NCBI GenBank assembly: GCA_040882645.1
Contig: JBBEAX010000055.1
Location: 3,589-67,588, forward strand
Origin: Acidimicrobiia bacterium
GTDB taxonomy: Bacteria > Actinomycetota > Acidimicrobiia > Spongiisociales > UBA11373
DNA length: 64,000 nucleotides
Reading direction: 5' to 3'
Within the stretch, counting starts at the first letter, position 1, and each line of letters starts with the position of its first letter. Below the pieces are notes generated by a model. That model was not told the origin of the DNA and did no database searches. It worked only from the letters and a program-made list of their open reading frames with translations. This document shows, piece by piece, positions 1 through 52,386 of the stretch. The translations under genes and the position numbers were made by a program.

Positions 1-84
1 ACGCGATACGCGATACGAAGGAAGCGGTGAACGAGTGCGATACGGGTTTGGCGATTCTTGCGGAAGGCGGAAGGCGGGGCGGCC
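1..84. repeat. Heptad-array element, truncated by the window edge: R-class array ACGCGAT x2.4 (1-17) and G-class-like array GGCGGAA x2 (56-84)
   Basis: Direct reading gives acgcgatacgcgatacg, then cttgcggaaggcggaaggcggggcggcc. The reverse complement CCGCCTTCCGCCTTCCGCAAGA matches the array at 13653-13692. It lies just past the 3' end of the 90-626 gene. Confidence 0.7.
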
Positions 85-4006: not shown

Positions 4007-4027
4007 GCCTCGCTGCGCTCGGCCCGG

Positions 4028-4095
4028 CTGCCCGCTACCCGCTTCCCGCTGCCGGCAAGATCGGATTCGGAGCGGGTAGCGGGTAGCGGGTAGCG
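4028..4095. repeat. G-class heptad hairpin: CCGCTAC-type array (4028-4053) and inverted GCGGGTA x3 (4071-4095)
   Basis: CCCGCTACCCGCTTCCCGCT against the reverse complement of the right arm CCCGCTACCCGCTACCCGCT gives 1 mismatch in 20. It lies between the convergent ino1 and nfo. Confidence 0.8.
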
Positions 4096-4117
4096 ATTCC
4101 TCCCGGGCCAGGGATCC

Positions 4118-4879
4118 CTAAGTTCTTGCTCGCAACCAAGCGATATCCGCGCCCTGTTCCGCCGCCCCGCCGGGCGTTTCGACGACGGTGGGAACCCCGG
4201 CTGCCCGGACCACCGAGACCAACAACCCTTCTGGGATCATCCCCTCTCCGAGATTGGCGTGGCGGTCGCGGCTCGAACCGTGCGGGTCGCGCGAATCGTT
4301 GCAGTGGATCAAGTCGAGCCGGCCGGTGAGTCCGCGCACCCGATCGGGCAAGCCGTCCAGTTCCGCCCCGGACGCCCAGGCGTGGCAGGTGTCGATCACC
4401 ACCCCAACATCGAAGGCGCCGATCGCCTCCCACAAGCGCCCGAACCCGTCGATCTCCCGCAGGACCGCATTGCCCCCGCCCGCGGTGTTCTCCAACAGCA
4501 CCGGAACCGTCAACTCGACCGAGTCGAGCGCCTTGCGCCACCGGTCGTACCCGACGGCGACATCCTCATCGTCGCCGACGTGGCCGCCGTGAACGATGAC
4601 CCCGGCGGCGGCAATGGCCCCCGCCGCCGCCAGGGTGTCGGCGAGGATCTTGCGGCTCGGGATCCGAATCCGGTTGTTGGGTGAGGCGACGTTGATGAGG
4701 TAGGGGGCGTGTACGTAGATCGGCAGGCTCGACGCGGCCAGTGCCGCCGCATCGGGGCGGCGAGGCGGCGCCTTCCACGACTGCGGGTTCGACAGGAAGA
4801 TCTGGACGAGGTCTGCATCACGAGCGGCGGCCTCGGACAGCGGCTCGGCGGTACCGACGTGGGCCCCGATCGGGATCAC
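4118..4879 (-). CDS. nfo: Deoxyribonuclease IV / AP endonuclease family 2
   Basis: TIM-barrel endonuclease IV motifs ([40 protein letters not shown]). GTG 4879 was chosen because the upstream 78 codons of the track ORF are Arg/Pro-rich and the GTG overlaps the upstream stop (GTGA). Confidence 0.85.
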
Positions 4880-5496
4880 TCGTCGGGCCCGGCGACTCGG
4901 GGGCGATCGGCCCGCTGGTCGAGGAGGGGAGCCACCATGTGGGCGGGTCGATCCCACTCCTCCGTATACAGGTGGATCCACGGCGGATCGGGTTCGGCAC
5001 CCGATGGATCCGAGGGCAGCAGGCCCATGTCTCGCAGGCGGATCGAGAGCACCGGCACCGGCGCTCCTTCGCTGTCGATCACGCCGGAGCGGACCTCGAC
5101 CACCTCCTCCCACGGAAACAGGCGCGCCCGCCGTCCGGGACCGTCGACCCGGACCGAAATCCCCTCATCGTCCGCCTTCAGCAAGATCGTCGGCCGGACG
5201 AGTTCCTTCAACCCCCAGATCATCGCCGCGGACCCGCCCACCAGGAGGGCCGACCCGACCACCAGGTCACGCCGCCGTTGGGCGCGGCCGTCCTGGGTCC
5301 ACGACTTGGTGACGACATCCACCGACTCGCCGTTCTCGTTGATGGTGGTGCCGACGACAGATTCGGTGAATTCGGGTTCGGGGAACCAGCGATAGGAAAC
5401 CATCATGTCGACCGCCAACAGGATCGCCGGCACCGCAAACGCCGCATACGCCAGCAAGCGAAGAGGTGAACGGGCGATCGAGACGCTGACGGGCAT
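4876..5496 (-). CDS. Hypothetical membrane protein (2 TM helices plus a cytoplasmic domain)
   Basis: Last 206 codons of the 4876..5898 ORF, starting at ATG 5496 ([10 protein letters not shown]). The upstream part of that ORF reads through heptad repeats (RFAMRDAQCAMRDAS) and is not credible coding sequence. Confidence 0.65.
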
Positions 5497-5530
5497 GGCT
5501 GGAGGGTAGATCAGCAAGCCCCACTTTCGG

Positions 5531-5681
5531 TACGCAATGAGCAATGCGCAATGAGCGACCTGCGGTCCGCGTCCGTGGAAGTTTGACGCGTCGCGCATCG
5601 CGCATTGCGCATCGCGCATTGCGAATCGCCCCCCGGCGCAGACCACTCTTGTCTTGCTACTTGACTCTTGACTCTTGCTAC
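5531..5681. repeat. Composite heptad element: R array (5531-5557), inverted R' array (5588-5629), K' array CTCTTGA-type (5646-5681)
   Basis: The R/R' arms pair with 3 mismatches in 25. The R'+K' part is the inverted counterpart of 9685-9782. The uppS stop TAG (5678-5680) lies inside the K' array. Confidence 0.8.
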
Positions 5682-6490
5682 TTTCCGAACCTGCGCTCTC
5701 GCCGGGTGTAGTCGCGTAGGGCGCGTAAGAAGTCGACCCGGCGGAAGCCGGGCCAGTGGACGTCGACGAACGAGTATTCGGCATACGCCGCCTGCCACAG
5801 GAGGAAGCCCGACAGGCGGGACTCCCCGCTCGTGCGGATGACCAGATCCGGGTCGGGCAGATCGGCGGCGTACAAGTGGGCGGCGATCGCCCCTGCATCG
5901 ATCGAATCGGCTAGTTGCTCGGCCTCCACCCCGTCGGCGGCCAGCTTCGCCACCAGCTCGCGGACCGCGTCCACGATCTCCTGGCGGCCGGTGTAGGCGA
6001 GCGCCAGGTTGAGCCGCCGTCGCCCGCGCGGCGAAGACGCCGACAACTGCCGCGCCGCCTGCTGGAGCCGGTCGGGCAGCAGGTGGATGCTGCCGATGAC
6101 ACCCACCTGCAGGTCCTCGCCTCCGATTGCCGGCAGCCGCTCGAACAGGTCGACCAGGACGTCGTAATACGGCTCTAGTTCGGCCGGAGGGCGTTCGAGG
6201 TTCTCCTGCGACAGCAGCCAGCAGGTCATCACCGGAACGTCGAGGTCACCGCACCACCCGAGGAACTCGGCGAGCTTGTCCATCCCCGCCCGGTACGACG
6301 AGGCGTAGTCGCGAAGGCCGGCGATCCGGGCGAAACGCCGGTGGCCGTCGAGGATCACCCCGACGTGTCGAGGGAGCTTCTCCCGGTCCAGCGATCGAAG
6401 GAGGCGCTCCTCGTAGAGCCGATACAGCGGCCGGGTCAGCACGGTCCTACGCGGCGACGGCCCGGAACGCCTGTCAGCAGGTTCCGTCAT
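5678..6490 (-). CDS. uppS: Isoprenyl transferase (cis-prenyl diphosphate synthase, UppS family)
   Basis: 270 aa from ATG 6490 with HVGVILDGHRRFA and IRTSGESRLSGFLLWQAAYAEY. Which UppS paralogue this is cannot be decided from sequence alone. Confidence 0.85.
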   Translation of the reverse strand: MTEPADRRSGPSPRRTVLTRPLYRLYEERLLRSLDREKLPRHVGVILDGHRRFARIAGLRDYASSYRAGMDKLAEFLGWCGDLDVPVMTCWLLSQENLERPPAELEPYYDVLVDLFERLPAIGGEDLQVGVIGSIHLLPDRLQQAARQLSASSPRGRRRLNLALAYTGRQEIVDAVRELVAKLAADGVEAEQLADSIDAGAIAAHLYAADLPDPDLVIRTSGESRLSGFLLWQAAYAEYSFVDVHWPGFRRVDFLRALRDYTRRERRFGK

Positions 6491-6509: not shown

Positions 6510-8102
6510 TCATGGAAGCCCACATACATCGATGCCGTCGAGGAACCCAGCCTTGAAGGACTCGAACCGCCTGAAAGCACTCGCGTAGCCCTCCGTGCCC
6601 GCGGGGGCCGAAGTCTGCAGGAAGCCGCTGATGCCCTCGTCGAGATCGCCCGCCGTGAGGATGATCCCGGTCGGGTTGTCCTCGAAGGTGATGGCCGCGG
6701 TCCACACCCCGGTGAGGCAGTCGCGCTGCAGGGTGGCGGGAACTCCCTCGGTCTCGAGGCCGGCCTTGTGCTGCACCGCCTCGTGCCACTGGGTGGCCAG
6801 CACCAACCCGAGGGCAAAGTCGCCGATCTCCGTGTAGAGGCCGGGGAACAGCTGTTCTTCGTCCCAGGCGACGAAGTCCTCCGGCGGGCAGTAGAACACG
6901 TTGCCCTCGTAGAACGCGGTGTCGGAGGTGAATCCACCGCACGATGGAAACTCACCCGACGAGGGGAAGTAGGGCACGGTGCGGTCGACCGGATCCCACG
7001 CCTCGCCGAAAACCTCCGGGTAGACGAGCGCCCAGAACGCCTCGAGCGAGCCGATCAGCTGCGAGGCGGCCTCGGCATAGGGAAGGTCGACGCTCCCATC
7101 CTCTCCGACAAAGGGGACATGGAAGAACGGGGGCGGGGTGGCCTCGAATGTGGCGCAGTGCTCGGTTCCCAGTGAGTAGCCATCGAAGAAAGCACTCAGG
7201 CGCGCGAACGAGTTGCCATGGGCGTTGGCGCCGGTAGGGGCGCTACCGAGGGAGTCGCCGATGAGCACGAAGCCCGCCATCCCTTCCTCGAGGTCGCCAG
7301 CGTCCAACTCGAGGATGTCGCTTTCAAGGCGATCGACTCGCCCGGTCCACGCCCCGGCGAGACAATCGGCCTGCAATTCGGACACGATCGTCGGAACCGC
7401 GTCATCCAATCCGAAGCGAGCCTGGATCGCATGACCCCACTCATGGGCGAGGACGAGGGCGACCGTGAAGTCGCCGTACTCCGCGTAGAGCGGCGCCATC
7501 AGGCCCTCCTGGTCCCACTGCACGCTGTCGTTGAGCTGGCAATAGAACGCGTTGACCTCGAACTGGTCGCGTGACAGGGGACCGCCACAGATCGGCACGT
7601 CGCCTTCGGAGACGAAATAGGGACCGAACGCCGTGACCGGCTCGTAATCCACCCCGAACACCTCCGGCAGCTCGGCACTCCAGAACTGCTCGAGGTCGGT
7701 GATGGTGAAATCGACGAGCGTCTCGATGTCGGTGATCGGTTGGAACCCGCCTGCGGTGGTAGTGGTGGTGTCGCCCGTACTGCGTTGGCAGATGTCCACG
7801 ATCTCGACCACGACGGGATGCGATTCGATGTCGCCCTCCGTCTCGAGGTCGAGGAAGTCCTGGAGCGACATCCGCTCCTGGAACTCGTCGATGGTGCAGC
7901 GGCAGAACGCCACAGTCCCATCGACCGAACACCCCTCGACATACGAATCCACGATCTGGGTCGGATACTCGAACGCGGCAGCGGTCGTCGAGGTGGTGCC
8001 GGCGCCCGTCGTCGTCGTGGTGGTGATGACCGACCCACCATCGTCGCCGCAGGCCGCCGCGACCAACCCCAGGGCGAGTATCAGTACCAGGCTCTTCTTC
8101 AC
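6510..8102 (-). CDS. Lipoprotein with two tandem YpfJ-like neutral zinc metallopeptidase domains
   Basis: GTG 8102 is preceded by GGAGG. The signal/lipobox is KKSLVLILALGLVAAAC, followed by a poly-Thr linker. Domain 1 carries HEWGH. Domain 2 is a clear internal duplicate (EVFG..PV..PYF..CGG..NAFYC..D) but reads ATQWHEAVQH at the same position. Confidence 0.8.
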   Translation of the reverse strand: MKKSLVLILALGLVAAACGDDGGSVITTTTTTGAGTTSTTAAAFEYPTQIVDSYVEGCSVDGTVAFCRCTIDEFQERMSLQDFLDLETEGDIESHPVVVEIVDICQRSTGDTTTTTAGGFQPITDIETLVDFTITDLEQFWSAELPEVFGVDYEPVTAFGPYFVSEGDVPICGGPLSRDQFEVNAFYCQLNDSVQWDQEGLMAPLYAEYGDFTVALVLAHEWGHAIQARFGLDDAVPTIVSELQADCLAGAWTGRVDRLESDILELDAGDLEEGMAGFVLIGDSLGSAPTGANAHGNSFARLSAFFDGYSLGTEHCATFEATPPPFFHVPFVGEDGSVDLPYAEAASQLIGSLEAFWALVYPEVFGEAWDPVDRTVPYFPSSGEFPSCGGFTSDTAFYEGNVFYCPPEDFVAWDEEQLFPGLYTEIGDFALGLVLATQWHEAVQHKAGLETEGVPATLQRDCLTGVWTAAITFEDNPTGIILTAGDLDEGISGFLQTSAPAGTEGYASAFRRFESFKAGFLDGIDVCGLP

Positions 8103-9835: not shown

Positions 9836-9884
9836 CGCCGTCCCACGGCGAGTAGCAGTGGGTATCACCTAGCCTCGCGCGGCT

Positions 9885-11324
9885 ATGCGAATCCTCGTCA
9901 CGGGTGCCACTGGTTACATCGGAGGTCGCCTCGTGCCGCGGCTGCTCGACGCCGGGCATCAGGTCCGTTGCCTCGCTCGCACCCCCGCCAAGCTCGCCCA
10001 GCACCCGTGGAGGCGCGAGGTGGAGGTCGTCGCCGGCGACGTGCTGCACGCCCCCTCCCTGAAGGAAGCGGCCACCGGCTGCGACATGGCGTTCTACCTG
10101 GTCCACTCGGTGGCCGCCGGCAAGGGCTTCGCCGACCTCGACCGCACCGGCGCCGACAACTTTCGCCTCGCCGCCGAGGATTCCGGGCTGCGGAGGATCG
10201 TGTTCCTCGGAGCGCAGGGGGCGGCCAACGGTGTCCATTCCCAAGTGGCTGCGGTTCGCCACGAGGTGGGTGCAATCCTCGCCTCGGGAGTGGTGCCGGT
10301 CACCGAGATCCGGGTGGGGCCGGTGATCGGGTCGGGATCGCGGTCGTTCGAGATGGTGCGGTCCCTCACCGAGGTCAGCCCGATCCTCCTCGCCCCGCGC
10401 TGGGTACGCAACGAGTGCCAGCCGGTCGGGGTGAGAGACGTCATCGAGGCCCTGTCCTCTGCCGCCACCGACGACTCGGCCCTCGGCCGCGTCGTAGAGC
10501 TCGGCGGGCCCGAAGTGCTCACCTTCTTGCAGATGATGAAGATCTACGCCGACGAGGCCGGCCTGCGGAAGCGGCGGGCGATACCGGTGCCGATGACCGC
10601 CGCCCGGCTGTCGTCGCTGTGGGCGGGGCTGGTGACCCCATTGCCGGCGCGGGTGGCGCGTCCTTTGATCGAGGACCTGCGATCGGGGCTCGTGCCCGAG
10701 TCGCCCGAGCCGCTGGTGGACGACCCCACCCCCTACCGTGTCGCCCTTCGCCGGGCCTTGTCGCGGCTCCCGGGCGGGGTGATCACCCGCTGGTCCGATG
10801 CCGAATCCCACCCGCCTGCGCCGGAACCGAACCGGTCCTGGCGGGGCGAGATCGTCTATATGGACCGCCAGGTGGTGCCCACCGACGCCGAAACCGCTCA
10901 CCTCTTCTGGGCCTTCAGCCGCATCGGCGGCAGTGTCGGCTACTACGGGCTCGATTGGGCGTGGCGGATACGCGGCCTTCTCGATCGGGCCGTTGGCGGT
11001 CCGGGACTGCGGCGCGGCCGACGGCATCCCAACGAGCTGCGGGTGGGCGAGGTCGTCGACTGCTGGCGGGTCGAAGAAGTGGAACCGGGGAGGCGCCTCC
11101 GCCTACGCGGCGAACTAAAGATCCCGGGTGAGGCTTGGCTCGAGTGGGAGACCCGTGACACCGAGTTCGGGGCCGACCTGATCCAGACCGCGTGGTTTCG
11201 CCCGCGGCGGTGGCGGGGCCGGCTCTACTGGTACGGAATGCTCGCCGCCCACCGCATCGTCTTCCCGCGAATGGCGCGGCGCATCGCCGCTGCCGCCGAA
11301 GAACGCGGGTACTCGACGCGGTGA
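9885..11324 (+). CDS. NAD(P)-binding SDR-family protein fused to a DUF2867-like domain
   Basis: N-terminus MRILVTGATGYIGGRLVPRLL (Rossmann fold). The C-terminal half (WRVEEVEPGRRLRLRGELKIPGEAWLEWE) looks like DUF2867. Confidence 0.8.
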   Translation: MRILVTGATGYIGGRLVPRLLDAGHQVRCLARTPAKLAQHPWRREVEVVAGDVLHAPSLKEAATGCDMAFYLVHSVAAGKGFADLDRTGADNFRLAAEDSGLRRIVFLGAQGAANGVHSQVAAVRHEVGAILASGVVPVTEIRVGPVIGSGSRSFEMVRSLTEVSPILLAPRWVRNECQPVGVRDVIEALSSAATDDSALGRVVELGGPEVLTFLQMMKIYADEAGLRKRRAIPVPMTAARLSSLWAGLVTPLPARVARPLIEDLRSGLVPESPEPLVDDPTPYRVALRRALSRLPGGVITRWSDAESHPPAPEPNRSWRGEIVYMDRQVVPTDAETAHLFWAFSRIGGSVGYYGLDWAWRIRGLLDRAVGGPGLRRGRRHPNELRVGEVVDCWRVEEVEPGRRLRLRGELKIPGEAWLEWETRDTEFGADLIQTAWFRPRRWRGRLYWYGMLAAHRIVFPRMARRIAAAAEERGYSTR

Positions 11325-14509: not shown

Positions 14510-16372
14510 ATGGAACCCAAAGAACTCCTCGGCAGGATCAAGGCCGAGGTTGCAGCACCAGCAGAAGAGGTGACGTTCGCCCGGTACCTCGAGATGGTGC
14601 GGGACGACCCCCGACTCGCCCGACTATCGCACGCACTGATCGCCGACATGCTCGAGGCTTCCGGTGTGTCCACCGGGCCCGACGGCGAGGAGCGCTTCGA
14701 CCTTTTCGAGGGCGGGCTGTTCGGTCAGCAGTGGGTCATCCAGCAGGTGGTCGATTACTTCCGGGCGGCCGGATGCCGCCTCGATGTCCGCAAGCGGATC
14801 CTGCTTCTCGTCGGCCCTCCCGGGTCGGGCAAGTCGACCCTCATCAACACCATCAAGGAGGGTCTCGAGGCGTACACCAAAACCGACGACGGCCGGGTGT
14901 ACGCGGTCAAGGGCTCTCAGATGCACGAGGACCCGCTGCGGCTGATCCCCAATGAGCTCCGCGACGAGACCGGCGTCTACATCGAAGGGGACCTCAATCC
15001 CGAGGTGCGTTGGTTGGTGGAATACGTCTACCAGGGCGACATCACCAAGGTGCCGATCCAACGGATCCACTACAGCATCGCCCGCGGCACCGGCTTCGGC
15101 ACCTTTGTCGCCACCGACCCCCGCTCGGAGAACCTTGCCCGCCTCGTCGGTGAGGTGGAGCAGAGCCTCCTCGATCCCACCGACCCGGGATCGGTGCGGC
15201 GCGCTTACCGATTCGACGGCGAGCTGAACGCGGCCCACCGGGGGATGGCCGACCTGCTCGAAGTCTTCAAGATGGACGAACGCTTTCTGGCGGTGCTGCT
15301 GAGCCTCAGCCAGGAACAGATCATCAAGACGAGCGGTCCCGGGACCATGTACGCCGACGAGGCCTTGGTCGCCCAGAGCAACCTCGCCGAATATCAGGAG
15401 CTCGTCGACAACCCGCGGGCGGCCGCGATGCTCGACCGCCTCGTGGTGGTGAAGGTTCCGTTCGTGCTGTCGGTGCGCGACGAGATCCGCATCTACGAAA
15501 AGATGCTCTCGGGCGCCGACCTCGGCCGGCGCGACGTCTCGCCGCTCGCCCTCCACACCGCCGCCACCTTCGCAGTGCTGACCAGGCTGGAGCACCCGGG
15601 CGGAGGCATGCAGGGCCTGATCCGCAAGCTCCGGCTCTACGACGGCCGCTACGGGCCTCACGGCGGCTCGGAGGACGCCCGCAAGCTGCGGGACAAGGCG
15701 CCAAACGAGGGCATGACCGGACTGAGCCCCCGCTACGTGATCAATCGCCTGTCGCAGGTGGCCGGCAACACCAAGGGTTGCCTCGATGGCATCGCGGTGC
15801 TCGAAGCGCTCTGGGAGGGTCTCCCCCAGCGGGCCGGGTTCACCGAAGACGAACGCGAGCGTTGGAGCTCACTGCTCTCCGCCACTCAGGCCGAGTACGA
15901 CGAGATGGTGCAGTTGGAGATTCGCAAGGGGTCGGTGCTCGGGTTCAAGGACTCGGCCGAGAAGATGGCGAAGACGGTTCGGGAGGAGGTGGCAGCGTGG
16001 AAGTCCCAGGGCGACGCGGCCAACACCCCCACGCTGCGACGGTTGGAGCGGCTCATCGACGTCCCCCAGTACGGACGAGATCGATTCCGCAATGCGCTCT
16101 CGGCAGCGCTGGAGTTGAAGGGGCAGCGGGGTCGCCCGCTCCACACCCGCCATCCCTTGTTGGAGGATGCGATCCAGCGGGCACTGCTGCCGTCGTGGAG
16201 CGACGTAGCCAAGAAGCTCGACGACCAGGGCGACGGCATCGTCCAGGGCATCCAGGCTTCCGGCTGGCGCAAGGCCTGTGCCGAGCAACTGGTCGAGTAC
16301 GCCCACAAGTTCATCGGATCGAAGCGCGACCGGCGGGACGAGGGCGAGAAGAAGCCGACCTGGTACTCCTGA
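14510..16372 (+). CDS. prkA: PrkA family AAA+ serine protein kinase
   Basis: ATG 14510 follows AGGAG. Long collinear similarity to B. subtilis PrkA / E. coli YeaG (RLDVRKRILLLVGPPGSGKSTL, YAVKGSQMHEDPLRLIP, AYRFDGELNAAHRGMADLLEVFKMDERFL). Confidence 0.9.
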   Translation: MEPKELLGRIKAEVAAPAEEVTFARYLEMVRDDPRLARLSHALIADMLEASGVSTGPDGEERFDLFEGGLFGQQWVIQQVVDYFRAAGCRLDVRKRILLLVGPPGSGKSTLINTIKEGLEAYTKTDDGRVYAVKGSQMHEDPLRLIPNELRDETGVYIEGDLNPEVRWLVEYVYQGDITKVPIQRIHYSIARGTGFGTFVATDPRSENLARLVGEVEQSLLDPTDPGSVRRAYRFDGELNAAHRGMADLLEVFKMDERFLAVLLSLSQEQIIKTSGPGTMYADEALVAQSNLAEYQELVDNPRAAAMLDRLVVVKVPFVLSVRDEIRIYEKMLSGADLGRRDVSPLALHTAATFAVLTRLEHPGGGMQGLIRKLRLYDGRYGPHGGSEDARKLRDKAPNEGMTGLSPRYVINRLSQVAGNTKGCLDGIAVLEALWEGLPQRAGFTEDERERWSSLLSATQAEYDEMVQLEIRKGSVLGFKDSAEKMAKTVREEVAAWKSQGDAANTPTLRRLERLIDVPQYGRDRFRNALSAALELKGQRGRPLHTRHPLLEDAIQRALLPSWSDVAKKLDDQGDGIVQGIQASGWRKACAEQLVEYAHKFIGSKRDRRDEGEKKPTWYS

Positions 16373-16433
16373 ATCAAGAATCAAGAATCAAGAAGCGGGA
16401 CTGGCGTCATCTTGAATCTTGACTCTTGTATCC
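16371..16433. repeat. K-class heptad hairpin: (GAATCAA)x3 - 12-nt loop - TCTTGAA TCTTGAC TCTTG
   Basis: Arms 16375-16395 and 16408-16428 pair at 18 of 21 positions. It lies between the convergent prkA and cca, and both stop codons fall inside the element. Confidence 0.85.
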
Positions 16434-17815: not shown

Positions 17816-17834
17816 GGGCCAACTCTAAGGCAGG

Positions 17835-18030
17835 CCGCTGCCCGCTACCCGCTACCCGCTGCCAGCAAGAGCCTTTGACTCGCTTGGCCGCCGCACGGCC
17901 CCTCCGGCTCGCTTCGCTCGCCACCTCCCCCTACTGGGGAGGAAACGCGTGAGACAAACTTCTTGCGGGAGGCGGGTAGCGGGTAGCCGGTAGCGTCTCT
18001 TGCAGGCAGCGGGCCGGCCGGAGGCCGGCC
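17835..18030. repeat. Composite element: G array CCGCTAC x3 + GCAAGAG (17835-17873), 60-nt GC-rich element with CCTCCCC-ctact-GGGGAGG hairpin (17887-17948), inverted G' arrays (17961-18013), GGCCGGCC-gga-GGCCGGCC hairpin (18012-18030)
   Basis: Direct reading. It lies between the cca start and the pilT stop. The inner 60 nt recurs inverted at 53870-53937. Confidence 0.8.
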
Positions 18031-19124
18031 TACTTCGTCCCTATCAGCCCCAGCTGCTGCGCGCGCAGCTTGAGGTCCGCCGGGTTGGTGGCGTTGCGCA
18101 TTGCTTCGTCGAAGGCGATGGTGCCGCTGCCTGCCAGTCGCAGGATGGCCTGGTCAAAGGTCTCCATGCCGTAGTACGACCCCTCGGCGATGACGTCGGG
18201 GATCTCATGGGTCATCGTCGCGTCGGCGATCCGTTCGGCGACCCGGTCGGTGTTGACGAGGACCTCCACCGCCGGCACCCGACCCTTGCCGTTCATCGCG
18301 GGGATGAGCCGCTGGCTGAGAATCGCCTTCAGCGAGCCGGAGAGCAGCACTCTGATCTGGCGCTGATGCTCGGTGGGGAAGAAGTCGATGATGCGGTTGA
18401 TGGTCTCGGTCGCATCGAGGGTGTGGAGCGAGGACAACACCAAGTGACCGGTCTCGGCAGCTTTGAGGGCGGCATCGACGGTCTCCACGTCGCGCATCTC
18501 GCCGATGAGGATGACGTCGGGGTCCTGGCGGAGTACTCGACGCATCGCCTCGCCGAAGCTACCGGTGTCCACTCCCACTTCGCGCTGGCTCACCATCGCC
18601 ACCTTGTCGCGGTGGACGAACTCCACCGGGTCCTCCACCGTGATGATGTTGACCCGGCGGTTCGAGTTGATCCAGTCGACCAGCGCAGCCAGGGTCGTCG
18701 ACTTCCCCGACCCGGTCGGCCCGGTTACGAGGATCAGTCCCCGCCGCTCGGCGGCGAGCCGGGTGAGCACCGGAGGAAGCCCCAGTGAGGCAAAGTCGCC
18801 CGTGGGTGGAAGCAGGGCGCGCAGGGCGATGGTGATGTTGCCCCGCTGCTGAAAGGCGTTCACCCGGAATCGGGATCCGTCGGAGACGCCATAGGCGAAG
18901 TCGGCCTCACGATGCTCCTTGAACTCGACCCGCAGCCGGTCCGGGATCAGGGCTTCGAGGTAGGCGTCGACATCGGCCACCGTGAGGTTCGGCTGCGGAA
19001 GGGGGCGCAGATCGCCGTCCACCCGGATCGTCGGGGGGATCCCCGGCTTCAGGTGGAGGTCAGATGCTCCGGCCGTGCGCGTATCGGCGAGAAGCTCATC
19101 GATCGAGGGCAGGTTCGAGGTCAG
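18030..19124 (-). CDS. pilT: Type IV pilus retraction ATPase PilT-like, with the start inferred at CTG
   Basis: Walker A GPTGSGKSTT, plus LIGEMRD and TGHLVLSSLHT. The track ORF starts at GTG 19022, but the conserved PilT N-terminus (SIDELLADTRTAGASDLHLKPGIPPTIRVDGDL) continues in frame upstream to a TAG at 19137-19139. No ATG, GTG or TTG lies in between. CTG occurs at 19122-19124 (AGGAAGAG upstream) and at 19110-19112. Confidence 0.85.
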   Translation of the reverse strand: MTSNLPSIDELLADTRTAGASDLHLKPGIPPTIRVDGDLRPLPQPNLTVADVDAYLEALIPDRLRVEFKEHREADFAYGVSDGSRFRVNAFQQRGNITIALRALLPPTGDFASLGLPPVLTRLAAERRGLILVTGPTGSGKSTTLAALVDWINSNRRVNIITVEDPVEFVHRDKVAMVSQREVGVDTGSFGEAMRRVLRQDPDVILIGEMRDVETVDAALKAAETGHLVLSSLHTLDATETINRIIDFFPTEHQRQIRVLLSGSLKAILSQRLIPAMNGKGRVPAVEVLVNTDRVAERIADATMTHEIPDVIAEGSYYGMETFDQAILRLAGSGTIAFDEAMRNATNPADLKLRAQQLGLIGTK

Positions 19125-20981: not shown

Positions 20982-21045
20982 GGAATCAAGAATCAAGAAT
21001 CAAGACCGTGGCAGGTTCGAGTCTTGAATCTTGGCTCTTGATTCC
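20982..21045. repeat. K-class heptad hairpin: GGAATCAAGAATCAAGAATCAAGAC - 14-nt loop - GTCTTGAATCTTGGCTCTTGATTCC
   Basis: A 25-position stem with 22 Watson-Crick pairs, 1 G-U and 2 mismatches (paired by hand). It lies between the convergent GNAT and DegV genes. Confidence 0.9.
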
Positions 21046-21962: not shown

Positions 21963-22050
21963 GCAATTCGCAATTCGCAATACGCAATACGACGAACCCG
22001 GGCTCCAGCATTCGGCACGCTCGCTGCGCATTACTCATTGCGCATTGCGC
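21963..22050. repeat. R-class heptad hairpin: GCAATTC x2, GCAATAC x2 (21963-21994) and inverted CATTGCG-type array (22026-22050)
   Basis: Direct reading. The junction ATACGACGAA and loop CCGGGCTCC are shared with 40977-41078. It lies in the divergent degV / ECF-sigma region. Confidence 0.8.
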
Positions 22051-26264: not shown

Positions 26265-27122
26265 TCACTGGTTCAGTTCGCGATAGATCCTCTCCAGATC
26301 ATCCACGGATCCGAACCTTATGGTCAGCCGTCCCCCACCCCGCCGTCCGTACTGGATGGTGACGGGCGAGCCGAGACGCTCCGTCAGTCGCTCCTCGAGA
26401 GCGATGATCTCGGCGGGGCGCTCGCGTCGGGCGGGACCACCCGAATCGACATCCCCTCCGCCGTGCTTGCGGACCGCATCTTCGACCTGACGAACCGACC
26501 AACCTTCGTCGGCGGCTCGATTGGCCGTTCGCACCGCAAAGGCGGTGTCGCTGGTTCCGAGTAGCGCCCGTGCCGCACCGGCCGAGAGCCTCGCGTCGGC
26601 CAGCAGACCCTGAATCGCCCCGGGGAGGTTCAGCAATCGCACGGTGTTGGTGATCGCCGACCTGCTCTTGCCCACTCGCTCGGCAACCTGCTCGTGTGTC
26701 ATGTCAAAATCTTCCATAAGAGTTCGGTAGGCGGCGGCCTCCTCCAGCGAACCAAGATCCTCACGCTGCACGTTCTCGATCAGCGCTTCGGCCAGGCGTC
26801 CCGAGTCGTCGGACACCCTGATGACCGCGGGGATGGTGTCCAGGCCGGCCAGCTTGGCGGCTCGAAGCCGCCTCTCCCCCGCCACCAGCACGTGCCTGCC
26901 GTCGTCGTCTGCCGGCCCGATCACGATCGGCTGCAGGACCCCCACCTCTCTGATCGAGGCCGCCAGGGCCTCGAGGGCCTCCTCGTCGAAGCGCTCCCTC
27001 GGCTGGCGGGGATTGGGGGTGATCGCGCCGATCTGCACCCAGGCGAACCCCTCGGTCGGAACGGTCGTCGACAGGAGGGCCTCGAGCCCCCTCCCCAATC
27101 CGGACTTACGTGGTGCGGCCAT
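26265..27122 (-). CDS. parB: Chromosome partitioning protein ParB
   Basis: GLGRGLEALL, the ParB box (QPIVI...LVAGERRLRAAKLAGL) and an HTH (MTHEQVAERVGKSRSAITN). Confidence 0.95.
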   Translation of the reverse strand: MAAPRKSGLGRGLEALLSTTVPTEGFAWVQIGAITPNPRQPRERFDEEALEALAASIREVGVLQPIVIGPADDDGRHVLVAGERRLRAAKLAGLDTIPAVIRVSDDSGRLAEALIENVQREDLGSLEEAAAYRTLMEDFDMTHEQVAERVGKSRSAITNTVRLLNLPGAIQGLLADARLSAGAARALLGTSDTAFAVRTANRAADEGWSVRQVEDAVRKHGGGDVDSGGPARRERPAEIIALEERLTERLGSPVTIQYGRRGGGRLTIRFGSVDDLERIYRELNQ

Positions 27123-27936
27123 GTCTCCTCCTGAACTCCTCGGCGAGCGAGCGGTAGGCGATGGCCCCGCGGCTCATCGGATCGAACGACTCGATGGGTT
27201 CCCCGAACGACGGCGCTTCGGCCAATCGCACCGTACGGGGAATCACCGTGCGGTAGGCCCGATCGCCGAAGTGCTCCCGGACCTGCTGCGAAACGTCGGA
27301 GGCGAGGGTGGTGCGGCGATCGAACATGGTTATCACCGCTCCTTCTATCTCAAGTCCAGGGTTAAGGTTTGCCTGGATCGCATTGATCGACTTGAGTAGT
27401 TGGCTCAATCCTTCGAGCGCGTAGTACTCGGCCTGGATCGGAATGATCACCTCATCCGCTGCGGTGAGCGCATTTACGGTTATTAGCCCGAGGCTCGGGG
27501 GACAATCGATGAACACGAGGTCGAACGCCCGCTCGAGCTTCTCGATGGCGATCGCCATCTGGCGCTCCCGGGAGAACCGGGCCACCAGCTCGATCTCTGC
27601 CGCCGCCAGATCGATCGAGGACGGGGCGACGAACAGCCGGTCCATCGCGGTGGGCAAGATCACTTCGTCGAGGCCGGCCTCGCCCAGAATCACGTCGTAA
27701 ACCGACTTCACCACCGTGCGTCGATCCACGCCGAGGCCACTGGTGGCGTTGCTCTGGGGATCGCAATCGATGACCAGCACCTGCTCCCCCATCGTGGCAA
27801 GGGCGGCAGCCAGGTTGATCGCGGTGGTCGACTTGCCGACCCCGCCCTTCTGATTGGCGAAAGCGACGACGGTTGCGCGGGAACGAGCGGGGTCAGGCAC
27901 CGAGGCGCATGATAAGGATCCAGGCGGGTCCGTCAA
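27106..27936 (-). CDS. parA: Chromosome partitioning ATPase ParA/Soj
   Basis: Deviant Walker A NQKGGVGKSTT, plus VIDCDPQ. Confidence 0.95.
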   Translation of the reverse strand: MTDPPGSLSCASVPDPARSRATVVAFANQKGGVGKSTTAINLAAALATMGEQVLVIDCDPQSNATSGLGVDRRTVVKSVYDVILGEAGLDEVILPTAMDRLFVAPSSIDLAAAEIELVARFSRERQMAIAIEKLERAFDLVFIDCPPSLGLITVNALTAADEVIIPIQAEYYALEGLSQLLKSINAIQANLNPGLEIEGAVITMFDRRTTLASDVSQQVREHFGDRAYRTVIPRTVRLAEAPSFGEPIESFDPMSRGAIAYRSLAEEFRRRHGRTT

Positions 27937-28537
27937 GGATTTCCGGTGGCGTGCCCACCACCTCCGCTTGCAGGCCCAAAGCGGTGGCGACCCCCACCAG
28001 GTCCCGGGTGCGATCCGGCGGCTCCTCCCGTCGACTCAACCCGAGGACTGCGGTACCCGGAATCCCCAGCAGGCGCCCGGCCAGGCCAACGGCCTCCGGC
28101 GCCTTGACCGAGCCCCGAAACACCAGCCCGGACCATTCGTCGGCCACCTCGAAGACGTCTCCCTGGGCGACTCGAACGTTCTCCAAGCCAAGGATCCTCA
28201 CCGCCCTGGTCAGCAGCCGGATACGGCGCCCCCCGCGATCGAGCACGGTGACCTCCGTGTCCGGCCACAGGATCGCCAGCGGGATCCCGGGGAGACCGAC
28301 CCCGGTGCCCACGTCGAGGATCTCGGTTGGTGCGGCCGGCCATGCGGCGGAGAAGGCGACGGAGTCGGCGATGTGTCTCCCCCAGATCCGGTCTGCCTCC
28401 CGCGGTCCCAACCCGCCCGCCGGAATCGCCTCGTGAATCAGCCACTCCGCATACGCCTCGAGCGTTTTGCCCTGGCGTTCGGACAGCTGGTGGCCGGCCC
28501 AAACGGCCGCCTGGCGAGCTAGATCGGGGGAGTCCAT
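27893..28537 (-). CDS. rsmG: 16S rRNA (guanine527-N7)-methyltransferase
   Basis: GidB-like sequence (RHIADSV, ILDVGTGVGLPGIPLAI). Canonical position next to parA. Confidence 0.9.
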   Translation of the reverse strand: MDSPDLARQAAVWAGHQLSERQGKTLEAYAEWLIHEAIPAGGLGPREADRIWGRHIADSVAFSAAWPAAPTEILDVGTGVGLPGIPLAILWPDTEVTVLDRGGRRIRLLTRAVRILGLENVRVAQGDVFEVADEWSGLVFRGSVKAPEAVGLAGRLLGIPGTAVLGLSRREEPPDRTRDLVGVATALGLQAEVVGTPPEILDGPAWILIMRLGA

Positions 28538-28555
28538 GGTGAAGAAGGTACCACT

Positions 28556-28584
28556 TTCGCTACCCGCTACCCGCTACCCGCTAC
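28556..28584. repeat. G-class heptad array (CGCTACC x4), left flank of the parS pair
   Basis: tcgctacccgctacccgctacccgctacc read directly, 19 nt upstream of the rsmG start codon. Confidence 0.8.
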
Positions 28585-28605
28585 CAAGGGATGGGAGCTG
28601 ATATT

Positions 28606-28621
28606 GGTTTCACATGAAACG
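28606..28621. other. parS-like site GGTTTCACATGAAACG (13/16 to TGTTTCACGTGAAACA)
   Basis: Compared by eye with the canonical ParB site. Mismatches fall at both end positions and at the central G>A. Confidence 0.6.
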
Positions 28622-28640
28622 ACTGCACGCGGGTGAGAAC

Positions 28641-28656
28641 CGTTCCACGTGAAACA
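28641..28656. other. parS site CGTTCCACGTGAAACA (15/16 to TGTTNCACGTGAAACA)
   Basis: Near-perfect match, 35 bp centre-to-centre from the first site, in the rsmG-jag intergenic region about 1.5 kb from parB. Confidence 0.85.
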
Positions 28657-28727
28657 TTGAAGGGGGCCGAACATGGGACACCACAAAGAATCATGGGATA
28701 TCACAGACCGGTCCCGCGTCATTTGCC

Positions 28728-28797
28728 GGGGGTAGCGAAGGGCGATCGCAGCAGGCAGCGATTGTCAGCGGGTAGCGACTGTCAGCGATTTCGCTAC
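28728..28797. repeat. Inverted G'-class region (GGGGTAGCG, GCGGGTAGCG) with an internal direct repeat GCGA[TC]TGTCAGCG x2, right flank of the parS pair
   Basis: Direct reading. It contains the GCAGGCAGCG motif shared with 18003-18012. The jag stop TAG (28794-28796) lies inside it. Confidence 0.7.
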
Positions 28798-29663
28798 TCC
28801 GCCGCCACGATCACGGACCGGTGGGGCTCTTCGCCTTCGGAGTAGGAGCGGACGCCGTCGATCTCGCCGACGGTGTCGTGGACCACCTTGCGGTCGGCGG
28901 AATTCATCGGCTCGAGCATGACTTCGCCGCCTTCGGCGATCACCTTGTCGGCGAGTCGGCGAGCGTAGATGCGGAGCGCCTCGCGACGGCGCTCGGTGTA
29001 ACCGGCGATGTCGAGTCGGATGCGGGCGCCCTCCTGGGTCTTCCGCTGGACGATGGTCCGGCAGAGCTCGAGGACCGATTGCAGAATGACCCCTTTGGTG
29101 CCAACGAGCGCCTCGGTCTGTTCGCCGGCGACGTCGGCGTAGATGATCTCCTCCTCGACCCGCACCGAGACCTTGCCTTCGAGTCCGTAGGCCTCGAGCA
29201 ATCCCTTGAGGAACCGCTCGATCTCGGCTGCCTGCTCGTCGACGCCGATCACGTCGCGATCGTCTGGGCGTGCCCTCATCTCCTCACGCTCCTTCGAACG
29301 ATCATCTCGCTTCGGAGGCCTCGGCTTCGGGCTGCTGGCCGATTTGGATCCACGGTCTCCTCCCCTTCCTCCGCTCGATGAGCGCTGGTCCGACTCGCGA
29401 GGCTTGGTCCCCGCTCCACCCCGCGGGTGCCGCGTGTCGCCACCCGAACCGCGGCTCCGTCGCCCGTTGCTCGGCTTCGGCGGCTTACGCTTAATGCGAA
29501 CCACGGCGCCTTCGCCGCCGATTCCGAGGAATCCCCGGGTCGGTTGCTGCAGGACCTCGATCTCTGCCTCATCCTGAGACTTGAGACCCAACTCCTCGAG
29601 GCCCGCCTCGATGGCGGTCTCCACCGACGGTCCCCTGACGTCCACGTACTCCCTGGAAGACAC
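28794..29663 (-). CDS. jag: Jag/KhpB RNA-binding protein (Jag-N, KH, R3H)
   Basis: N-terminal Jag_N (VETAIEAGLEELGL), a basic low-complexity linker and C-terminal KH/R3H (GYTERRREALRIYARRLADKV, MNSADRKVVHD). Confidence 0.9.
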   Translation of the reverse strand: MSSREYVDVRGPSVETAIEAGLEELGLKSQDEAEIEVLQQPTRGFLGIGGEGAVVRIKRKPPKPSNGRRSRGSGGDTRHPRGGAGTKPRESDQRSSSGGRGGDRGSKSASSPKPRPPKRDDRSKEREEMRARPDDRDVIGVDEQAAEIERFLKGLLEAYGLEGKVSVRVEEEIIYADVAGEQTEALVGTKGVILQSVLELCRTIVQRKTQEGARIRLDIAGYTERRREALRIYARRLADKVIAEGGEVMLEPMNSADRKVVHDTVGEIDGVRSYSEGEEPHRSVIVAAE

Positions 29664-30557
29664 CTACTTCCTCCTCCGCTTCTTTCCCCGCTTCTTCTTC
29701 GAGACGTTGGAGCTCCGTTGACCGCCACTCGGAAGAGGCCGGGTGGCGGTGGGGGAGTCGTCGCTCGGTCGGGGTTGCTTCCCTTCCTTCAAAGATGCCG
29801 TCTTCGGGGATGCGGCCTTGGTCGGGCTGGATCCCTTCTTGTCGCCTCCGTCCATCCCGAGGATGAGGGCCTGCTGCCCGATCCTGAAGATCTGGCTGGC
29901 AGCGAAGTAGACCACCAGGCCCGCCGGGAGGGTGTAGGAGATGAACCCAAAGAATAATGGAAAAATCTTCATGATCGCTTGACCGGGGGGCTGCTGGCCG
30001 CCTTGGGCACTGCTGCGGGCCATGGTCTGCCGCTGCTGCCAGTAGGCGGTGAAGACCACTATCAGGATCGTGAGGAAGTACGGAATCGCATCGATGATGC
30101 CGATGTCGAGGGCGTTGCTGGGGGAGACGCTCAGGTCCATCCACAGGAAGTCGACCCGACCCTCTGCCACCGCCCGTGCCAGCTCGCTGCCTTCGGTTAC
30201 CCATTTTCCCGGATTTCGCAGCACGCTGAACAGGGCGAACCAGATCGGCATCTGGAGCAGAAGGGGGAGACACCCGGCGGCGGGATTGACGCCCCTCTCC
30301 TTGTAGAGCGCCATCGTCGCCGCCTGTTGGGCCTGCCGATCGTGCTTCAGTTCCTTCTGGATCCGCTTGATTTCGGGCTGGATCTCCTGCATCGCCTTCA
30401 TCGAGCGGGTCTGCTTGAGGGTGAGCGGGAACAGCAGAATCCCGATGACGACGGTCAGCAGGATGATGGCGATCCCGAAGTTGGCGATGAGGCTGTAGAA
30501 GAAGGTCAGCGTTGCGCCGATGATCTCCTGAATGCCGTTCCAGATCCCCGACATCAA
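29664..30557 (-). CDS. yidC: Membrane protein insertase YidC (short, Gram-positive type)
   Basis: [49 protein letters not shown], and a basic C-terminal tail. Confidence 0.95.
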
Positions 30558-40976: not shown

Positions 40977-41096
40977 CCGCGATACGCGATACGCGATTCG
41001 CGATACGACAGAAACGCCTGGATCAGCCGAGACGCGCCGGGCTCCGTCGAATTGCGAATTGCGAATTGCGAATCGCGGCTCGGGCGTCAGCCCGAG
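40977..41096. repeat. R-class heptad hairpin: CGCGATA/CGCGATT x4 (40977-41009) and inverted GAATTGC x3 (41047-41078), then a 7-bp hairpin (41079-41096)
   Basis: The arms align over 33-34 nt with 7 non-Watson-Crick positions. Several are G opposite T, so G-U pairs are possible in plus-strand RNA. It lies between convergent genes. The stop of the 41087 gene sits in the small hairpin loop. Confidence 0.8.
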
Positions 41097-43240: not shown

Positions 43241-43279
43241 CCCGACCCCGGTCCCGGCCCTACCCTCACCCCACCACGC

Positions 43280-43460
43280 GAGTGGTGACCTGACGGACAG
43301 CGAAGTCCGGTTTGAATCCGGCACTGTCCCGCAACCGTGATGCCCCTTTTGGGGACGAGTCGGGACGCCTGACGTCAGGTCGGATTTGGACGCCTTCGGA
43401 GGAAGGGTGGCCAGCCGTCGGGCTTCCACACCTCCTCCTCGAGACTCGAGGAGGTTTTTT
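43280..43460 (+). promoter_or_regulatory. Cobalamin (B12) riboswitch with a terminator / SD-sequestering expression platform
   Basis: The core GAAGUCCGGUUUGAAUCCGGCACUGUCCCGCAACCGUGA (43302-43340) matches the conserved cobalamin aptamer core from memory. The B12-box-like GAGUCGGGACGCCUGACG is at 43358-43375. P1 candidate is ACCUGACG (43288-43295) with CGUCAGGU (43373-43380). Terminator CCTCCTCG-agact-CGAGGAGG plus T6 is at 43434-43460. Its 3' arm contains the GGAGG SD for ATG 43462. Confidence 0.8.
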
Positions 43461-52270: not shown

Positions 52271-52354
52271 AGAGACCCAAGAATCAAGAGTCAAGAATCG
52301 AGACCAGCCGGTGTCGCCGATGGTCATCTTGGTTCTTGGCTCTTGATTCTCTTT
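52271..52354. repeat. K-class heptad hairpin: CAAGAAT CAAGAGT CAAGAAT (52271-52305) and inverted CTTGGTT CTTGGCT CTTGATT (52322-52354)
   Basis: Direct reading. The outer AAAGAGA/TCTCTTT ends also pair. It lies between the beta-propeller gene stop and the MFS start. Confidence 0.8.
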
Positions 52355-52386
52355 GAGCGCAGCGAGACCCCTTACCATCGATACCC

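Follow-up and report, generated by a model that had tools for sequence, protein, structure and literature searches.

A parS pair between inverted heptad arrays in the jag-rsmG spacer of an uncultured Acidimicrobiia bacterium

We consider the 256-bp spacer between the jag and rsmG genes (28538-28793) in the replication-origin (oriC) region of an uncultured Acidimicrobiia bacterium, as it lies in a 64-kb stretch of DNA that we call the window (GC content ~66%). This spacer holds two parS sites, the loading sites of the partition protein ParB, and the two sites are flanked on both sides by inverted repeats with a seven-nucleotide unit (heptads), an arrangement that we refer to as the bracket. The parS pair is ordinary, and the bracket is probably the local copy of a genome-wide family of arrays that is independent of parS. 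The original prediction, which drew attention to this spacer, had placed the parS sites in the loop of a long-range cruciform or hairpin that could affect the loading or the spreading of ParB, or that could simply reflect the insertion of repeats next to parS. We find no evidence that the arrays serve parS; the bracket is neither an accessory of the sites nor needed for them.

In the explanation that we favour, ParB, which is encoded 1.4 kb downstream, would bind the two sites (parS-1 and parS-2), close as a clamp dependent on cytidine triphosphate (CTP) and spread, and the spread ParB would organise the origin for segregation driven by ParA. ParB would also feed back on its own operon, as the predicted leaderless promoter of rsmG-parA-parB lies 55-105 bp downstream of the parS sites; judged from this position, autoregulation is likely, and we hold it with moderate confidence. 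The (GGTAGCG)4 array on the rsmG side and the decayed repeats at the jag stop codon would be the local copy of seven-nucleotide simple-sequence arrays that occupy intergenic DNA. Such arrays would arise and change by slippage, and a process that all spacers share would keep them, or make them again, in inverted pairs. This process may be selection for an RNA hairpin at 3' ends or between genes, or it may be hairpin-templated repair or gene conversion between the two arms.

The parS sites and the rsmG promoter

The two sites (Table 1) are found as the original prediction had described them, at 15/16 and 13/16 to the consensus and 35 bp apart from start to start. One of the mismatches in parS-2 is a change at the centre of the palindrome (G9->A), and its 14-bp core is kept at 13/14. 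Within the 64 kb only parS-1 is found with two mismatches or fewer, and no site beyond this pair has an intact half-core. When up to three mismatches are allowed and each strand is counted, three sites give five matches in the window where 0.43 are expected, a number that is reached in 0 of 100 shuffles; the third site, at 59669, has a broken core, which agrees with the prediction that no other full parS is present. Outside this spacer, no comparable parS is found in the window, in 12 kb of the related locus L042, in 21 kb of the related locus L040 or in the other related loci that were read. We have high confidence, from the sequence, that the pair represents ordinary and credible ParB loading sites, with parS-1 likely to be the main one and parS-2 doubtful as a site by itself. 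In L042, whose Cca is 96% identical to that of the window, the ortholog of parS-2 (TGTTTCACGTGAAACT) has a single mismatch, and parS-2 of the window appears to be a weakened copy.

Orthologous spacers were gathered in three ways: by a search with RsmG in a genome collection, by the same search in a metagenome collection, and by an exact look-up of ribosomal protein L34. The relatives carry the labels of Acidimicrobiia or Actinomycetota metagenome-assembled genomes (MAGs). Among the 27 spacers read in related Acidimicrobiia, 25 have between one and three parS sites (up to three mismatches) immediately upstream of rsmG. The other two (L010 and L027) have a split variant (TGTTTCAC, 8-10 nt, CACGTG[GA]AAC); L008 has split repeats too, yet it retains sites within three mismatches. 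These split sites are direct repeats of the form TTGTTTCAC, CGTC(A/G)G.., (C)CACGTG(A/G)AAC with the half-sites 8-10 nt apart, present in two copies each in L008 (4890-4960) and L010 (4885-4955) and in one copy in the short fragment L027 (25-55), and the gene upstream of rsmG in this subclade is not jag. Perfect parS sites just upstream of rsmG are also seen in distant loci caught by the search, from Rhizobiales, Pseudomonadota and Fibrobacterota. The placement of parS upstream of rsmG is ancient and conserved, and it is already known: in Mycobacterium bovis BCG, the spacer between jag and gidB (rsmG) holds a parS that overlaps a gidB promoter at its -10 box, and ParB has been proposed to be autoregulatory there (PMC2346475).

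The parA and parB genes lie 0.6-2.3 kb downstream of the parS region, and the start of dnaA is 3.1 kb away from it. The ParB_N domain of ParB contains the CTP-binding motif GERRLRA, with VLVAGERRLRAAKLAG read in the translation. The true start of parA is probably near 27900, where it overlaps the end of rsmG; the gene call for parA in the assembly L001 has 264 aa and overlaps rsmG by 8 nt.

The start codon of rsmG is fixed by the conserved N-terminus M/V-D-S-P, and no Shine-Dalgarno (SD) sequence is found upstream of it. A TANNNT box close to a start codon without an SD is the standard signature of leaderless actinobacterial mRNAs. Of 15 distinct relatives, 13 have such a box (TACCTT, TAGCTT, TATCTT, TACACT, TACCAT, TAGACT and others) upstream of rsmG, with its end 6-8 nt short of the start codon, where the chance per gene is ~1-2%, and in the window it has the form of a -10-like hexamer (Table 1). 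We predict that the rsmG mRNA is leaderless with its transcription start site (TSS) at the A of the ATG. Among the 50 crude gene calls of the window, 12 have a TANNNT ending 5-9 nt before the start and no SD, as compared with ~1 by chance, and these 12 are mutually exclusive with the 13 SD-bearing genes of the window. This suggests that leaderless mRNAs are common in the genome (examples of TANNNT starts are 17815(-), 20248(+), 28537(-), 46985(-), 50003(-), 52387(+), 55809(-), 58035(+), 59119(+) and 62057(+)). A scan of 28300-29000 for sigma-70 and intrinsic-terminator consensus has no match, which is uninformative because actinobacterial promoters do without a strong -35 and the terminators do without U-tails. 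In distant relatives that have no array, parS stands 4-5 nt (L026, L028) or 1 nt (L029) from the -10 box; in the array-bearing relatives the two are separated by an array, with 28-100 nt from the last parS to the -10 box.

The bracket and the array family of the lineage

The arm on the rsmG side is a clean tandem array, and the gap to the nearer parS is 20 nt rather than the 21 nt given in the original prediction. On the jag side, the predicted inverted units and duplicated 13-mer are present, but they do not make a tandem heptad array. There are isolated units of GGGTAGCG (28730-28737 and 28770-28777) and a period-17 duplication of 2.3 copies (28749-28787) that holds the 13-mers GCGATTGTCAGCG (28758-28770) and GCGACTGTCAGCG (28775-28787), which share the form GCGA[TC]TGTCAGCG. 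A further CGCTAC (28792-28797) overlaps the jag stop codon, and a local hairpin of GTAGCGA (28772-28778) with TCGCTAC (28791-28797) spans that codon. Against the left array, perfect inverted matches are at best of 12 nt (28557-28568 with 28767-28778) and 10 nt (28556-28565 with 28730-28739), while the longest imperfect match between left and right, at 72%, covers 29 nt and leaves 148 nt between the arms. The Smith-Waterman score for left and right is 25, as compared with 14.0+-2.3 in dinucleotide shuffles (1/200), and the complementarity of the arms is real but modest. The spacer, including the four array copies, is the same in two independent assemblies, an NCBI MAG (L001) and one from Logan (L002), which excludes an assembly artefact; a contig near-identical to the window is JBBDTU010000128 (MAG GCA_040904265.1).

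Several smaller features touch these arms. The octamer GCGATCGC, known as HIP1 in cyanobacteria, occurs at 28742-28749 within the jag-proximal repeats and is probably a coincidence in a genome of high GC. A canonical G-quadruplex was considered for the (GGTAGCG)4 array and rejected, as the minus strand reads GG-TAGC-GGG-TAGC-GGG-TAGC-GGG, with only three GGG runs and one GG; a two-tetrad form is conceivable. In the relative L022, the corresponding (GGGCGAC/GGGTAGC)x9 at 2920-2985 has nine GGG runs and makes a strong G-quadruplex motif on the sense strand of rsmG. Between parS-1 and the jag-proximal repeats there is a direct repeat (CATGGGACACCACA / CATGGGATATCACA) that is specific to the strain cluster of the window and absent from the L004 and L042 spacers; as DnaA boxes its two copies were rejected, with only ~6/9 matches to a TTGTCCACA-type box.

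Does the bracket belong to parS, or to the genome? The window contains 21 arrays of period 7, as compared with 0-2 for periods 5, 6 and 8-11, and the flanking repeats do belong, as had been claimed, to a family that litters the region. By a crude gene map, 17 of the 20 arrays listed are wholly intergenic, and the remainder lie at the ends of mis-called open reading frames (ORFs). There are three unit classes (ACCCGCT; CGCGAT[TA]/CGCAATT; CAAGA[GA]T/GAATCAA), all of which stand side by side at 5534-5683. The usual arrangement is a pair of inverted arrays, one at each of the two gene ends that border a spacer, and such brackets are mostly found where at least one gene ends, with the arms ~5-40 nt from the stop codons.

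The complementarity of the arms is expressed as the z of the Watson-Crick Smith-Waterman score against dinucleotide shuffles. These scores were used instead of RNAduplex energies of the flanks, which gave very loose structures with long interior loops; the test splits each spacer into halves and fails when both arms share a half, so L051 and L052 were read by eye. Seven other spacers of the window are bracketed with z of 3.4-9.4 (Table 1), and the jag-rsmG bracket has the widest arm separation and is among the weaker ones. In L040, an annotated relative of 21 kb, arrays are carried by 5 of the 7 spacers of at least 100 nt, and an array in a spacer of 256 bp is therefore the expected state.

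Within L040, bracketed spacers are found at 6785-6929, 9870-10000 and 17960-18205, and the arms in the window and L040 have z of 3.4-10. The DegV|GNAT spacer has 3 units in one genome and 9 or more in another, with Cca 96% identical between them. The families of arms are also dispersed. Up to two mismatches, GGTAGCGGGTAGCG has 17 matches at four intergenic loci plus one at 38199 inside the gyrA ORF, where 0.48 are expected, and in L042 the arm GGCTGGAGCCGTAGC is found again in the cca|prkA spacer of that genome. A junction motif, CCGC(C/T)..(C/G)GCAAGA(G/A), is seen immediately inside the C-rich arrays at many loci in several genomes (window 60-80, as reverse complement, 4044-4062 and 17856-17872; L016 1150-1165; L021 1060-1075; L022 2770-2785; L040 18050-18080), and it hints that the arms are the ends of a composite repeated element and not pure products of slippage.

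Period-7 arrays are also present in relatives with at least 70% RsmG identity and are not seen in the more distant ones. In seven lineages (the window, L016, L018, L020, L042, L043 and L044) the parS spacer is bracketed, each time with its own unit (Table 1). On the rsmG side, the units among the relatives are GGTAGCG, GGTAGCT, GGGCGAC, CATTGCC, ATCTGAT, GACCATC, TATGGAC and GGAGCC, in 3 to 9 copies; GGTAGC[GT] arrays homologous to that of the window occupy the same place in L016, L021 and L022. The arms are not alignable between lineages, and their complementarity is judged by score against shuffles, not by alignment-based covariation. The inverted similarity extends past the arrays into unique sequence, over 44 nt in L044 and over 45 nt at cca, and a strong local hairpin stands between the left arm and the first parS in L004, L005, L016, L018, L022, L043 and L044. 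In L016, an array of (CAGCTAC)x8 at 1222-1280 lies between two parS sites and stretches their spacing to 127 bp.

Other relatives keep parS without a significant bracket. L004, L005, L017/L019, L021 and L022 have arrays or remnants of arrays whose complementarity is not significant; L004 (85% RsmG identity), which has a degenerate GACGGT/GACGGGC/GATGGGC remnant, is not a clean case of a parS pair without arrays and is counted here as having no significant bracket. Short spacers in which no arrays are seen by eye, with no shuffle test applied, keep a single parS (L006, L007, L009, L023, L025, L026, L028) or a pair (L029). The original prediction had proposed this comparison of relatives as a check, and had named a parS pair kept without its flanking arrays as part of what would speak against an effect on ParB.

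The parS-free spacer T2SSE|cca serves as a control for the apparent covariation of the arms. Its arms are CCGCTAC/GCGGGTA in the window and GTCTCCA/TGGAGAC in L040 (z=10.0; Cca 96% identical). In L051 and L052 it has one C-rich and one G-rich array of weak complementarity, in L053 one array and a single inverted unit, and in L054 nothing. This is the same spectrum of variation as in the parS spacer. From the control and the dispersed families of arms it follows that the bracket is a property of the spacers of this lineage and not of parS, and the sites come to lie in the loop because they lie in the middle of the spacer. The suggestion that the bracket affects the loading or spreading of ParB is thus left unsupported, with the same bracket around parS-free spacers and with parS kept by relatives that have no significant bracket. 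An insertion of repeats next to parS comes closest to what we see, except that it is not a one-off event: both edges of the spacers are filled, with fast turnover, throughout the lineage.

Some points weigh on the other side. Seven bracketed parS lineages with seven different units resemble covariation and can be read as selection on the parS spacer. Only one orthologous parS-free control was followed across relatives, and a strong bracket is seen there in the window and in L040 alone. The gene map behind the intergenic statistics is a crude call based on GC content at third codon positions (GC3). Finally, parS-2, with its central mismatch, may fail to bind ParB.

Pairing of the arms and competing readings

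The minus-sense RNA of 28530-28805 folds at -112.9 kcal/mol (z=-4.8, with 0 of 200 shuffles as stable). Its minimum free energy (MFE) fold contains the long-range stem as well as the local hairpin, and 23 of its pairs enclose both parS sites. The 28 bases of the array pair with the jag-proximal repeats at a mean probability of 0.79 in RNA and 0.72 in single-stranded DNA (ssDNA) of either strand; for DNA folding the z is -2.4. The two parS palindromes also pair with each other, which is trivial and accounts for some of the stability. Pairing of the arms within a single strand is thermodynamically plausible in these calculations and is not specific to parS; this part of the predicted hairpin stands.

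The alternative that fares best is that these arms pair in a jag-rsmG read-through transcript, where the whole spacer would be one large stem-loop and parS a passenger in it. The stem-loop could stabilise or terminate the 3' end of jag, be a processing site for RNase III, or couple translation between the jag stop and the SD-less start of rsmG. The fold just described is in its favour, as is the complementarity that is kept while the arm sequences change, in the seven parS spacers and in parS-free spacers alike, and the position of most brackets at gene ends. Precedents are found in cyanobacteria, where hairpins of 7-bp short tandemly repeated repetitive (STRR) sequences between the co-transcribed hupS and hupL have been proposed to stabilise the transcript or couple translation (PMC2670836), and in mycobacteria, where co-transcripts of jag-gidB-parAB have been detected (PMC2346475). 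On the other hand, five lineages have no significant complementarity of the arms, a part of the z comes from the parS palindromes, and the strong local hairpin of the seven relatives, if it is a terminator, would leave the right arm rarely transcribed. A leaderless rsmG mRNA would not include the right arm, which is located upstream of the predicted -10 box; with this position and the local hairpin in relatives, a role in RNA would need read-through. We regard this stem-loop as a tentative possibility. It would be a general function of brackets and not a function of parS, and it is compatible with the explanation that we favour.

It is also conceivable, and we think it unlikely, that the array tunes the promoter. 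The rsmG-proximal array covers the -35 and upstream region (about -48 to -21) and would act as a variable spacer that moves parS-bound ParB off the -10 box, so that a change in copy number would tune the expression of the par operon or relieve its occlusion by ParB. The contrast between array-free relatives, in which parS abuts the -10 box, and those with arrays fits this idea, as do the 3 to 9 units among relatives, the proposed autoregulatory role of a parS over the gidB promoter in M. bovis BCG (PMC2346475), and the recurrence of the same layout (G-rich array, TANNNT, start codon) at cca (17816-17860) and at 52327-52386. However, the array units have no consistent resemblance to a -35, the same array families also occupy promoterless spacers between convergent genes (16371-16428, 20983-21042, 40978-41073), and the copy number is four in all three near-identical assemblies, with no short-term variation in length; the TSS, moreover, is a prediction only.

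A bolder version of RNA pairing, which we consider improbable, is that the spacers are enclosed by design: complementary arms would co-evolve and pair, in a read-through transcript or in ssDNA exposed by replication, to make giant stem-loops. If this were true, termination or read-through of jag and the ParB-bound parS would be coupled to the expression of rsmG-parA-parB, and the complementarity maintained through at least seven changes of unit would be compensatory evolution in a new intergenic structural element.

The bracket might instead be the terminal inverted repeats of a mobile element, similar to a miniature inverted-repeat transposable element (MITE) or a repetitive extragenic palindromic (REP) element, or two separate insertions around parS. 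The dispersed families of arms, the inverted similarity beyond the arrays in L044 and at cca, the recurrence of the junction motif (CCGC..GCAAGA) beside C-rich arms, and the replacement of both arms together between relatives with 96% identical Cca all point in this direction. Against it, the interior (parS and the -10 box) is ancestral and no part of a repeated element, the loop sequences are unrelated between loci, and the length and copy number of the arms vary continuously, as slippage predicts; neither a target-site duplication nor a transposase was seen, although no search aimed at them was made. We give a mobile element little credence.

The whole spacer must melt for a cruciform to extrude, so that the arms have to be long and near-perfect and the spacer between them very short. 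ParB, for its part, binds duplex parS, and a looped-out single-stranded parS would be no substrate. A cruciform or hairpin extruded in the chromosome, with parS in its loop and the loading of ParB, the sliding of its clamp or the loading of SMC altered, is therefore hardly credible: for all the arm complementarity above shuffles, the pairing in ssDNA and the brackets around parS in seven lineages, perfect arms of 8-12 bp that are 148-198 bp apart do not make a long near-perfect inverted repeat, a duplex cruciform is not expected because 150-200 bp would have to melt for them, and the same brackets enclose parS-free spacers while many relatives keep parS without one.

The remaining features of the window are given in Table 1 or as follows. 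A small plus-strand ORF (28633-28845) overlaps jag, which is on the other strand; it is not in the GC3-based gene map and was disregarded. A scan of the window at the Rfam gathering thresholds gives no match in the spacer; its sole match is an adenosylcobalamin (AdoCbl) riboswitch at 43274-43419 (+) (56.5 bits, E=1e-7), in a stretch of 1.2 kb without a called gene, upstream of a gene at 44307. ARAGORN finds no tRNA. In the region 4100-5900 (~1.8 kb), GC3 supports no gene with confidence, and the only ORFs there overlap one another on the minus strand and have a weak coding signal.

Table 1. Features of the jag-rsmG region, bracketed spacers of the window and bracketed parS spacers of relatives (z, arm complementarity score against dinucleotide shuffles; TRF, Tandem Repeats Finder)
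Feature	Coordinates	Strand	Position (A of rsmG ATG = +1)	Arm units	z	Remarks
parS-1	28641-28656		-119 to -104			CGTTCCACGTGAAACA; 1 mismatch to consensus TGTTNCACGTGAAACA
parS-2, degenerate	28606-28621		-84 to -69			GGTTTCACATGAAACG; 3 mismatches to TGTTNCACGTGAAACA, including one in central CG
-10-like hexamer TACCTT	28545-28550	minus	-13 to -8			7 nt upstream of rsmG ATG; predicted promoter, leaderless rsmG mRNA
rsmG-proximal arm, (CGCTACC)4 = (GGTAGCG)4 in rsmG sense	28558-28585	minus	-48 to -21			TRF period 7, 4.0 copies, 100% matches
jag-proximal arm, decayed	28730-28797	plus				GGGTAGCG x2, period-17 duplication with two 13-mers, local hairpin
Direct repeat CATGGGACACCACA / CATGGGATATCACA	28672-28705	plus				20 nt apart
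parB	26265-27122	minus				Pfam ParB_N 5e-29, HTH_ParB 2e-32, ParB_C 5e-16
parA (Soj-type ATPase)	27106-27936	minus				Pfam AAA_31, CbiA, MipZ
rsmG (gidB)	27893-28537	minus				first of rsmG-parA-parB run; Pfam GidB 3e-24; conserved start and N-terminus M/V-DSP
jag (khpB-like; Jag_N + R3H)	28794-29663	minus				gene upstream of spacer; Pfam Jag_N 2.5e-14, R3H 4e-16
yidC	29664-30557	minus				
dnaA	31751-33112	plus				then dnaN, recF, gyrB, gyrA; rpmH also beside dnaA
Spacer	4027-4095				9.1	follows gene stop; parS-free
Spacer prkA/cca	16371-16428				6.6	convergent; parS-free
Spacer T2SSE->cca	17835-17994				9.4	tandem; 111-nt loop; parS-free
Spacer	20983-21042				4.8	convergent; parS-free
Spacer	21963-22050				3.4	divergent
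Spacer jag-rsmG (window parS spacer)	28538-28793			CGCTACC / GGTAGCG	4.9	tandem
Spacer	40978-41073				7.0	convergent; parS-free
Spacer	52278-52345				6.6	tandem; parS-free
L016 parS spacer				CAGCTAC / GTAGCTG	11.7	encloses second parS only
L018 parS spacer				GGGCAAT / ATTGCCC	7.6	
L020 parS spacer				AGATCTC / ATCTGAT	3.4	
L042 parS spacer				GGCTCC / GGAGCC	10.2	Cca 96% identical to that of window
L043 parS spacer				GTCCATA / TATGGAC	8.8	
L044 parS spacer				GATGGTC / GACCATC	19.7	inverted similarity over 44 nt

Relation to known systems and meaning

The parS part of this locus is of a thoroughly known kind. It shares with the chromosomal ParABS systems (jag-gidB-parA-parB of Mycobacterium, PMC2346475, and the TGTTNCACGTGAAACA of Bacillus and Streptomyces) the 16-bp palindrome and the origin-proximal placement between jag and rsmG. 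The likeness extends to the position next to the rsmG-parAB promoter, to the number of sites (one to three), and to a canonical ParB downstream with a CTPase motif, a helix-turn-helix (HTH) and a C-terminal dimerisation domain. The window differs in the change of the central C:G of parS-2 to T:A and in its predicted leaderless promoter, and the sites of this lineage are held 28-100 bp off the -10 box by the arrays.

For the bracket, the closest relatives that we find are the STRR sequences of cyanobacteria, reportedly first described by Mazel et al. in 1990. Both are short tandem arrays of seven nucleotides in intergenic DNA, with several families in a genome and with inverted copies between adjacent genes that can form hairpins (PMC2670836). 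The arrays described here differ in that they occur in high-GC Actinomycetota (Acidimicrobiia) with other units, and in that their arms hug the gene ends and enclose a functional spacer of 14-200 nt with promoters or parS; in addition, we document here that units can turn over between relatives without loss of arm complementarity. A search of the literature for heptamer arrays in Acidimicrobiia gave nothing relevant, and a search on STRR gave incidental mentions only.

Intergenic heptamer simple sequence repeats (SSRs), such as GGGNATC in Xanthomonas and Nostoc (PMC4692102) and TAACTGA in Beggiatoaceae (PMC4679880), have the same excess of period 7 and the same intergenic bias, lie within ~50 bp of gene starts or stops in about four units at the mode, and are not associated with phase-variable surface genes. 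A further comparison is offered by the long simple sequence repeats of Mrazek et al. 2007, as far as they are cited in PMC4679880. In contrast to these, the (GGTAGCG)4 of the window contains no more than three GGG runs, two of the three unit classes are not G-rich, and the inverted pairing that dominates here is not the focus of those reports. With REP sequences, bacterial interspersed mosaic elements (BIMEs) and MITEs, the brackets share dispersed intergenic families, inverted symmetry, a preference for gene 3' ends and convergent spacers, and the potential for hairpins; they differ in having tandem heptads of variable copy number as arms and no conserved body of an element. The bracket is STRR-like and is only loosely like a MITE or REP.

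For chromosome segregation the result is an ordinary one, and it locates the loading sites of ParB and the likely promoter of the par operon in an uncultured lineage of Acidimicrobiia. For motif hunting it is a caution, in that any intergenic site in such genomes appears nested in a hairpin. The phenomenon of the bracket is more interesting than the parS part, as it extends the STRR hairpins of cyanobacteria to the Actinomycetota. It is also a natural setting in which to ask whether such hairpins are under selection, for RNA stability, termination or translational coupling, or are maintained by hairpin-templated repair.

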